Shown one piece after another: positions 4,040 to 4,325 of a stretch of 64,000 nt of DNA. A model generated the notes under the pieces. That model did not search any database and was not told where the DNA came from. It saw nothing but the letters and a program-made list of their open reading frames with translations. This DNA is from an uncultured Candidatus Saccharibacteria bacterium (GTDB lineage Bacteria > Patescibacteriota > Minisyncoccia > Phycocordibacterales > UBA12088): NCBI GenBank assembly GCA_964411375.1, contig CAYPKR010000001.1, forward strand, positions 238,807 through 302,806, in the 5' to 3' direction. A program made the position numbers and the translations under genes. How positions within the stretch are numbered: position 1 is the stretch's first letter; every line of letters starts with the position of its first letter.

Positions 4040-4253
4040 AGGCTTGGTCACAACTCAACATTGCAGAGCAACAATTTCCACGAGAGACGGGAATCTTTCT
4101 CCCTACGGGAGCGGTATAGGTTTCGTATCGTGCTCGGCTACGCCTCCGCGCGATATACTCAACCTTTTCAAGTCCCTTTCGGAGCTATCGCTCCGTACTC
4201 TCGCTCGTAACGCAAATTGGCAATTCTTTCGAATTGCCAATTTGCTAACTGCG
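4040..4253. repeat. tRNA-3'-flank element copy D; 12-bp direct repeat cgagagacggga at 4081-4092 and 4256-4267 (the latter inside tRNA-Asp); contains a perfect 15-bp-stem palindrome at 4213-4246
   Basis: Motifs ggtcaca (4047), aatttcc, gggaatct and cgcctccgcg shared with copies A, B and C; exact 12-mer direct repeat of the tRNA 3' end. Confidence 0.5.
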
Positions 4254-4325
4254 CGAGAGACGGGACTTGAACCCGCAACCTCTGCCGTGACAGGGCAGCG
4301 CTCTAACCAGTTGAGCTACTCCCGC
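4254..4325 (-). tRNA. tRNA-Asp (anticodon GTC), CCA not encoded
   Basis: Acceptor GCGGGAG/CTCTCGC with G-U at 4:69; anticodon loop CTGTCAC; T-loop TTCAAGT. Confidence 0.8.

Follow-up and report, generated by a model that had tools for sequence, protein, structure and literature searches.

In the elements that tyrosine integrases insert into transfer RNA (tRNA) and transfer-messenger RNA (tmRNA) genes, partial tRNA 3' ends flank the insertion and the tRNA is made whole again by the incoming DNA; successive insertions lead to tandem arrays (10.1101/2020.12.28.424599). In Patescibacteria, group I introns of tRNA genes occupy position 35/36 of the anticodon loop and are recognized by the group I models (PMC13011429). 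Here we describe element D, which lies directly behind the tRNA-Asp gene in a 64,000-nucleotide (nt) stretch of contig CAYPKR010000001.1, hereafter the window. D contains a direct repeat of the tRNA-Asp 3' end and a palindrome. Both are parts of one modular element, which is read on the minus strand, the strand of the tRNA, and which we tentatively regard as one copy of a family of insertion modules.

Several other small systems are relevant for comparison. In integron attC sites and in CTX-phi attP(+), a duplex recombination site is formed anew by the arms of an imperfect hairpin, which in CTX-phi attP(+) is a mimic of dif. Sites of the attC type carry an element that is extrahelical or bulged, vary in their terminal structure, conserve structure more than sequence, and occur in tandem arrays. 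MITEs (miniature inverted-repeat transposable elements) and the IS200/IS605-derived palindrome-associated transposable elements (PATEs) are small and gene-less, with hairpin-rich ends; PATEs bring with them the logic of omega-RNA and TnpB. The retron msr/msd RNA has a closing helix of terminal inverted repeats, in which short hairpins are followed by a long one lying directly against the helix's 3' strand.

A preliminary description of the window had reported D as an element bounded by a 12-nt direct repeat, with a perfect 34-nt palindrome next to the tRNA. The 12-mer CGAGAGACGGGA occurs in exactly two copies in the window. The second copy lies within the 3' end of tRNA-Asp, as was stated, at 4254-4265 and not at 4256-4267. 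On the tRNA-Asp strand the 12-mer reads TCCCGTCTCTCG; it takes in the final base of the T-loop, the T-stem 3' strand, and all but one of the seven acceptor 3'-strand bases. The probability that a 12-mer from a 30-nt tRNA tail recurs by chance within 250 nt is ~3e-4. The palindrome, GCAAATTGGCAATTC-TTTC-GAATTGCCAATTTGC, with arms of 15 nt and a loop of 4 nt, is indeed a perfect hairpin; it occupies 4212-4245 instead of 4213-4246 and begins 6 nt past the tRNA-Asp discriminator. The duplication said to bound the element is real, but an antisense copy of the same tRNA end, in two parts (4198-4204 and 4167-4177), had been missed.

On the tRNA strand, the order of the element is S, X, S', a folded core, and a distal sense S. 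S is the tRNA 3' end from the T-loop, X is an optional hairpin, and S' is the reverse complement of S, split by a hairpin, H. Beyond its arms, the palindrome continues as an imperfect inverted repeat of 29 nt (79% complementary), which includes the tRNA 3' end and corresponds to S-X-S'. The features of D are listed below, where DR1 and DR2 are the proximal and distal sense copies of the direct repeat.

4251-4325, minus strand: tRNA-Asp(GTC), complete and uninterrupted, found by ARAGORN and scored at 70.2 bits by the Rfam tRNA model; its 3' end is the proximal sense copy.
4252-4271, minus strand: S (DR1), TTCAAGTCCCGTCTCTCGCG, from the T-loop to the discriminator, with the exact 12-mer at 4254-4265.
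4212-4245, minus strand: X, a perfect 15-base-pair (bp) hairpin with a GAAA loop, without a T-run.
4198-4204, minus strand: acceptor part of S', GCGAGAG, reverse-complementary without mismatch to CTCTCGC, the acceptor 3' strand.
4180-4195, minus strand: hairpin H, CGGAGC-GATA-GCTCCG, which splits the antisense arm at the boundary of acceptor and T-stem.
4167-4177, minus strand: T part of S', AGGGACTTGAA, which includes GGGACTTGAA.
4099-4166, minus strand: type-2 core with P2, P3, a junction and P6, from RNAalifold on five homologues.
4161-4166 and 4118-4122, minus strand: core helix P2, AAGGTT pairing with AACCT.
4124-4157, minus strand: core hairpin P3, followed by the junction ATACCG.
4099-4111, minus strand: core hairpin P6, CTCCCGTAGGGAG.
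4078-4098, minus strand: distal sense copy DR2, AAAGAT-TCCCGTCTCTCG-TGG, with the 12-mer at 4081-4092.
4033-4077, minus strand: tail AAATT..TTGTGACC, which resembles the 3' end of type-1 elements.
4033-4045, minus strand: a degenerate third tRNA-Asp-like 3' end, AAGCCTGTCTCCA, within the tail.

The acceptor part of S', GCGAGAG, differs from the 5' strand of tRNA-Asp itself, GCGGGAG. The segment GGGACTTGAA matches, at 10 of 10 positions, the reverse complement of TTCAAGTCCC, the sequence of the T-loop and the T-stem 3' strand. DR2 is the 3' strand of the closing helix, in which the antisense arm S' is its partner. The two repeats of D are separated by 161 nt (4093-4253), and no credible open reading frame (ORF) is present between them. 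The hairpin H is found at the same position in the window copy winC, in L052, and in most type-1 elements.

The tRNA 3'-end duplication recurs at independent tRNA genes, as the preliminary description had proposed from two of them: four sites are present in the window and dozens in relatives. The sample of Paceibacteria-related loci comprised the window and 80 related loci (193 tRNAs) and, with 20 metagenomic loci added, 100 loci (230 tRNAs). In the smaller set, a tail match of at least 10 nt was observed downstream of 28 tRNAs versus upstream of 8, and the reverse complement of the T-loop and T-stem downstream of 24 versus upstream of 5. In the larger set, 42 of the 230 tRNAs (~18%) have an antisense arm within 260 nt downstream, against a chance expectation of ~7. 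A metagenome scan with the type-1 core pattern recovered 20 genuine elements.

At least three types of core were recognized, and elements were found behind at least 14 tRNA identities. The type-1 core, represented in the window by the copies at tRNA-Thr and tmRNA, has the form TYGAA-RGCCGGAR-hairpin-YGAGGCGGGGTCG-hairpin-GTGACC. Its hosts, always co-oriented, are tmRNA and the tRNAs for Asn, Arg, Leu, Met, Asp, Pro, Ser, Trp, Ala, Gly, Lys, Glu, and Thr. The type-2 core, represented by the copies at tRNA-Met and tRNA-Asp, has the form TYGAA-P2-GAG-hairpin-P2'-RTACYG-NNNCYGTARGNNN. The third type was found behind tRNAs for Thr, Asp, and Gln. Tandem arrays are present at five loci (L052, L085, L124, L129, and L138). 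X is terminator-like in about one third of the copies and absent in others, including copy A behind tRNA-Thr(CGT). This architecture was not found described in the literature. In Rfam 15, no family matches the cores, the window, or the type-3 locus even at E<=10; only tRNA and tmRNA pass, and the weak matches are hairpin artefacts.

L128 has, upstream of its element (~2440-2540, minus strand), a tRNA-like gene with a long extra arm and the end ...GGGGTTCGAATCCCTATCCCCGAACCA; it was not called by ARAGORN, yet its element has a matching distal copy. Partial tRNA duplications of other kinds are also present in relatives. Behind tRNA-Gln in L009 and L061 and behind tRNA-Thr in L070, copies of the segment from the anticodon arm to the 3' end lie 22-37 nt from the tRNA. 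In L056, tandem pseudo-tRNA units follow a tRNA-Thr(CGT) identical to that of the window. Most tRNA genes in the sample have CA(N) after the discriminator rather than CCA.

The cores show the pattern expected for structured RNA. A covariance model of type 1 was built from 12 copies and recovered 41 copies. In the alignment of these 41 copies, 93.5% of cells are paired, compared with 76% after shuffling and 30-44% when the partners are slid; the alignment was fitted to the model, and the pairing is therefore somewhat inflated. Both sides have changed in 17 of the 21 pairs. One G·U pair is kept in 32 of 35 copies, and on the opposite strand it would be a C·A mismatch. The hairpins P3 and P5 are wholly different among copies in sequence and length, with pairing always kept. 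For type 2, including D, RNAalifold on the five known copies gave 28 pairs, of which 16 show compensatory changes. The conserved G·U and the covarying helices, that is, compensatory changes together with a strand-specific pair, indicate that the folding strand is the tRNA-sense strand and that the element probably specifies a structured non-coding RNA.

The antisense arm has two possible partners. In P1 it pairs with the distal copy, and 88% of cells in the type-1 alignment are paired there; the alternative partner is the tRNA's own 3' end, across X. The 126-nt D unit alone folds by distal-copy closure (z = -3.2). In folding of the tRNA transcript, suggested earlier as a check of the palindrome, the minimum free energy (MFE) structure of tRNA-Asp plus D (-117 kcal/mol, z = -7.9) pairs S, in the tRNA 3' half, with S' and does not form the cloverleaf. 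The apical motif AAA-CUGC-UUU of H is frequent in type-1 arms, for example in L085, L031, L069, L039, L079, L138, L218, and L184; its conservation suggests a specific contact or binding site.

That the duplication marks an inserted element, as had been proposed, is supported by the spacer lengths in relatives. There, a compact cluster Met-Asp ... Thr(GGT)-Thr(CGT)-prfB is interrupted by elements. The spacer between tRNA-Thr(GGT) and tRNA-Thr(CGT) measures 5-117 nt in 20 of the 41 loci; in four of the loci with an element at this site it reaches 147-284 nt. Between tRNA-Met and tRNA-Asp, 14 of 20 loci have 3-107 nt, against 189 nt in L031 and 565 nt in the window, the two loci with an element behind tRNA-Met. 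The duplicated segment starts at T-loop position 56-58 in all copies and ends at the discriminator plus 1-6 nt. Its length ranges from 12 to ~65 nt and can take in the whole downstream terminator, with 65 nt identical in L152 and ~45 nt in L183. As in integrative elements, a direct repeat of the tRNA 3' segment starts in the T-loop and an intact tRNA is present at one end.

The cores are kept between sites with entirely different arms. Type-1 cores are 0.95-0.97 identical across tRNA-Asn, tRNA-Arg, and tRNA-Glu sites from different samples. In the window, the Thr and tmRNA cores are ~0.8 identical, including the otherwise freely varying P3, while the 95th percentile for pairs of cores from different sources is 0.74. 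Nothing is common upstream of TYGAA or downstream of GTGACC. Such identity between unlike flanks indicates that the arms are re-specified much faster than the core diverges. One pair of copies, L190 9941-10040 behind tRNA-Arg and L225 520-630 behind tRNA-Glu, has type-1 cores 0.97 identical; their 3' flank is a covarying mini-hairpin, GAAAGYGTACTCRCGGTTCC, and not a copy of the upstream tRNA end.

We tentatively favour, with somewhat less than an even chance, the explanation that D is a copy of a family of non-autonomous insertion modules of ~120-250 nt, which would encode a structured RNA and target the 3' ends of tRNA and tmRNA genes. Their hosts would be Paceibacteria-type Patescibacteria, and the family is widespread and apparently undescribed. 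The module would recombine into the T-loop of a tRNA gene, at the boundary of positions 55 and 56, the sublocation also used by T-loop-type integrases. It would supply a new tRNA 3' end, sometimes with a terminator, and the original 3' end, pushed downstream, would become the distal copy. The unit of S', core, and distal S would be transcribed with the tRNA or just after it. S' would then pair with the distal S in a closing helix of 12-17 bp around a multi-helix junction. S' would tie each copy to its tRNA and may be the guide or targeting determinant. In D, the palindrome would be X, and the pair of 12-mers the two sense copies.

Several results weigh against the insertion-module explanation. 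No recombinase, transposase, or reverse transcriptase was found among 35 ORFs of the window scanned with Pfam. The first downstream ORFs of 28 of 30 type-1 copies, judged by sequence inspection without Pfam, include nothing recombinase-like and no common partner; they are diverse and mostly housekeeping-like (prfB, infB, murA, rluA, ndk, tdk, ftsX, and prkA, among others). BLAST against phage and plasmid collections gave no match, and no free or circular form was found. Two high-scoring copies (L208 and L227) are free-standing, with no upstream tRNA. How the two arms come to be rewritten at a new tRNA is left unexplained by the model. Look-ups of exact proteins, made to find strain variants, yielded two proteins without a record and one contig identical to the window, so there is no pair of filled and empty sites to compare. 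A promoter scan found no conserved promoter before S', and in about one third of the copies a terminator-like hairpin stands between the tRNA and S'; for these two reasons, expression remains a prediction. Where the two sense copies differ (L011, L055, and the tmRNA copy), S' tracks the tRNA copy, and S' may continue beyond the discriminator, into trailer or CCA sequence (L183). An S-X-S' hairpin of DNA or of the primary transcript fits at least as well as an RNA closing helix.

Scans of viral contigs with the type-1 pattern gave one real match, L085, where a tandem array lies at the end of a contig beside host-like genes. The remaining 32 matches of this pattern were rejected as chance matches in GC-rich DNA. 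No matches were obtained with the type-2 and type-3 patterns.

The preference of S for S', and the tracking of the tRNA copy by S', leave room for two other models. In one of them, which we consider unlikely, the element is a cis-acting switch on tRNA maturation and thus a host regulator, not a parasite. S, S', and the distal S would form attenuator-like alternative structures: S' on the tRNA 3' half would give a misfolded precursor, and folding of the core, perhaps bound by a ligand or protein, would let the distal S capture S' and release the tRNA. A switch would account for the three-segment geometry, in which S' is complementary to both sense copies, for the opposite closures of the tRNA-Asp plus D transcript and of the lone unit, and for the strict co-orientation and immediate adjacency to the tRNA. 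The cores, conserved aptamer-like multi-helix junctions with conserved G·U and loops, would also suit it. A host regulator is harder to reconcile with the patchy distribution, where the same tRNA has different core types or none in related genomes, or with tandem arrays, decayed distal copies, and free-standing copies without a tRNA. In the roughly one third of copies with a terminator-like X, transcription would halt before S'. The other model, quite unlikely in our view, is a folded single-stranded DNA attachment site. In single-stranded DNA, S-X-S' would mimic the 3' end of the tRNA gene as a duplex, much as CTX-phi attP(+) mimics dif or an integron attC folds; a tyrosine recombinase of the host or a helper would carry out a one-strand exchange in the T-loop, the insertion would be fixed by replication, and the core would be an accessory single-strand structure. 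A single exchange of the top strand would give exactly the order tRNA(1-55)-S-X-S'-core-S, S-X-S' is the most stable structure, and tandem arrays occur as in CTX-type prophages. It also fits that S' complements the entire T-loop, extends past the discriminator into the trailer or CCA, and follows the tRNA copy where the sense copies differ. The conserved G·U and the loop conservation, on the other hand, point to RNA, and a replicon of 150-250 nt is implausibly small. Our searches gave no single-stranded or circular intermediate, helper phage, or recombinase; X is missing in many copies, including copy A, and the high-scoring L227 has S'-core-S with no upstream S.

Two further readings assign less to the element itself. 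The copies could be scars of phages or islands that had been integrated into tRNA T-loops and then deleted, leaving fused arms between the att sites. Partial tRNA 3' ends flanking insertions are the classical tyrosine-integrase signature (10.1101/2020.12.28.424599), partial duplications of the anticodon-loop type exist in L009, L061, and L070, and accessory genes follow elements C and D in the window. Scars are nevertheless very unlikely: independent deletions would not leave the same compact, helix-closed, covarying unit at more than 40 sites, with cores common to unrelated tRNA sites. The antisense arm would be left unexplained, the downstream genes are mostly housekeeping genes (prfB, infB, murA), and no integrase remnants were found among the scanned window ORFs or the ORFs after type-1 copies. 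The preliminary description had itself offered the palindrome as a terminator, a processing signal, or a protein-binding site, to which the 12-mer could be added as incidental or as a simple target-site duplication of a small transposon. In several homologues the hairpin at the X position is terminator-like, and a small hairpin also follows tRNA-Met, at 4874-4890 exactly as had been given. The D palindrome itself does not behave so. Only 5 of the 15 pairs of its stem are G·C, the sequence that follows is GTTACGAG, with no T-run, and a consensus scan made no terminator call. Nor is it a repeated recombinase or repressor site, since the motif search found a single occurrence and no second copy in the window, and homologues have unrelated hairpins or none at this position, conserved neither in sequence nor in presence. 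No terminal inverted repeats are present, and the duplication of 12 to ~65 nt contrasts with the fixed length of a target-site duplication. The comparative anatomy largely refutes this minimal interpretation, which is highly improbable.

A number of specific candidates were also rejected. An intrinsic terminator, defined by a G+C-rich hairpin and a T-run, does not describe the D palindrome. A MITE or another conventional transposon was rejected as the inverted repeats are only internal hairpins and S/S', and the duplication length varies. For a group I intron, tRNA-Asp is complete, there is no Intron_gpI match at E<=10, and S' has A, not G, opposite T54 and T55. An integrase element would have a recombinase and kilobase-scale cargo between the repeats; D has 161 nt only. 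For a retron, no reverse transcriptase lies downstream: a beta-lactamase-fold protein follows D, PrkA follows A, and diverse housekeeping genes follow elsewhere. A "CCA scar" of a retro-copied mature tRNA was dismissed because CCA is encoded in 4 of 42 element-bearing and 53 of 188 other tRNAs; DR1 and DR2 show no consistent difference. The 5' arm is not a copy of the 5' strands of the tRNA acceptor and T-stem, as in a tandem tRNA duplicate, being the Watson-Crick complement of the 3' strand plus the T-loop. A small ORF in the type-3 core has no conserved reading frame on sequence inspection. The sequence GGAAATTTACTNGTGACCGA, considered as a protein-binding motif, is the 3' strand of the type-1 P5/P4 hairpin.

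The window contains four elements, behind tRNA-Thr(CGT), tRNA-Met, tRNA-Asp, and tmRNA. The features of the three elements other than D are as follows, with R1 as the type-1 covariance model.

4713-4890, minus strand: type-2 sister element behind tRNA-Met (4891-4965).
4874-4890, minus strand: its X hairpin, with the acceptor part of S' at 4866-4873 and H at 4844-4865.
4830-4841, minus strand: its T part of S', with the core at 4758-4829 and a degenerate DR2 at 4741-4757.
4723-4740, minus strand: its type-1-like tail, with a remnant at 4713-4722.
2116-2232, minus strand: type-1 element (copy A) behind tRNA-Thr(CGT) (2257-2330); R1 57.3 bits, E=2e-19.
2227-2232, minus strand: acceptor part of S' in copy A, with the T part at 2212-2221 and the core at 2134-2211.
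2116-2133, minus strand: DR2 of copy A, which holds a 16-nt exact copy of the tRNA end.
44145-44313, minus strand: type-1 element behind tmRNA (44313-44705); R1 67.8 bits, E=1e-23.
44274-44313, minus strand: its terminator-like X, with the core at 44166-44251 and a decayed DR2 at 44145-44165.
44265-44273, minus strand: its acceptor part of S', TGTGGAGAT, matching the tmRNA end at 9 of 9 positions.

Each type-2 element (those of the window, L055, L048, and L052) is followed by a type-1-like 3' end, ..AAATT..ACTTGTGACC, and a degenerate tRNA end. In the window, 4723-4740 was compared with 2134-2151, and 4046-4077 is a further such end. The type-1-like end could be the result of a nested insertion followed by a deletion, or a bipartite 3' end. 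The tRNA order Met, Asp, Thr(GGT), Thr(CGT) (window 2257-5920) is the same as in relatives. The prfB gene of the window is divergent and lies upstream of tRNA-Met, whereas in relatives it comes after tRNA-Thr(CGT). It is at most 64% identical to species representatives, and the genome is that of a Paceibacteria-type patescibacterium. Accessory genes are inserted behind the elements: a PnuC-like fragment of 93 amino acids (4376-4657), a beta-lactamase-fold protein (2947-3975), and an iron permease (2576-2950). The 97-nt Thr-Thr spacer (2331-2427, minus strand) has a terminator-like hairpin (2427-2414) and then a T-run; another hairpin in it is GTCAGACC...GGTCTGAC. As the spacer lacks an antisense arm, it is not a member of the family.

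Roughly one in five sampled tRNA genes carries an element despite the tiny, streamlined genomes of Patescibacteria. It is possible, though doubtful, that the elements form a new class of tRNA-linked RNA elements peculiar to the ultra-small bacteria of the candidate phyla radiation (CPR), either S'-guided, protein-free programmable mobile modules or cis-acting switches on tRNA maturation. In the guided version, S' would pair with the segment from the T-loop to the 3' end of any tRNA or tmRNA gene, beside the invariant GGTTC, and would direct insertion as RNA or as folded single-stranded DNA. If mobile, the elements would colonise essential tRNA genes without any encoded protein and retarget many tRNAs with the same folded core, which bears on the nucleic-acid programming of site choice. 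Were they regulators, tRNA maturation would have its first cis-acting switches. In both cases, conserved structured RNA or DNA of this kind makes up a sizeable class without annotation in an uncultivated phylum, and the elements account for assembly breaks and for "partial tRNA" calls beside tRNA genes.

The elements share features with each of the known systems introduced above. Like retron msr/msd RNA, they have a closing helix, the same order of hairpins, and a G just inside the 5' arm; unlike it, their arms are copied from the tRNA to which they are always linked, and no reverse transcriptase is adjacent. With MITEs and PATEs they have in common their size, the absence of genes, and hairpin-rich ends, and the structured RNA followed directly by ~16-20 nt of flanking target sequence is likewise scaffold-plus-guide-like. 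By analogy with PATEs and TnpB, the invariant T-loop GGTTC could act as a fixed adjacent motif. In contrast to those elements, a replacement and an antisense copy of the target are carried, and no TnpA, TnpB, or IscB was found nearby.

The tRNA group I introns of the same phylum are likewise small structured RNA insertions at tRNA genes (PMC13011429). The P1/P10 logic of group I introns is comparable, in that a guide-like segment pairs alternately with two exon-like copies. The present elements, by contrast, leave the tRNA uninterrupted, have too small a core, and lack a G·U at the putative junction.

Compared with attC and CTX-phi sites, the S-X-S' geometry is compatible, structure is kept over sequence, and arrays are formed. 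The target is a tRNA gene and not attI or dif, an extra conserved core is present, and no integron or dif context was seen around the elements. A further resemblance is to the integrase att sites of islands, prophages, and tycheposons, which share the flanking tRNA 3' copy, the tmRNA target, the start of identity in the T-loop, and the tandem arrays. The integrase signature accounts for the sense duplication and leaves unexplained the small size, the antisense arm, the covarying core, and the presence of common cores at many tRNAs. Unlike integrase elements, the present ones are 120-250 nt long with no integrase or other gene, they combine an antisense copy of the att segment with a covarying folded core, and one core family serves at least 14 different tRNAs.

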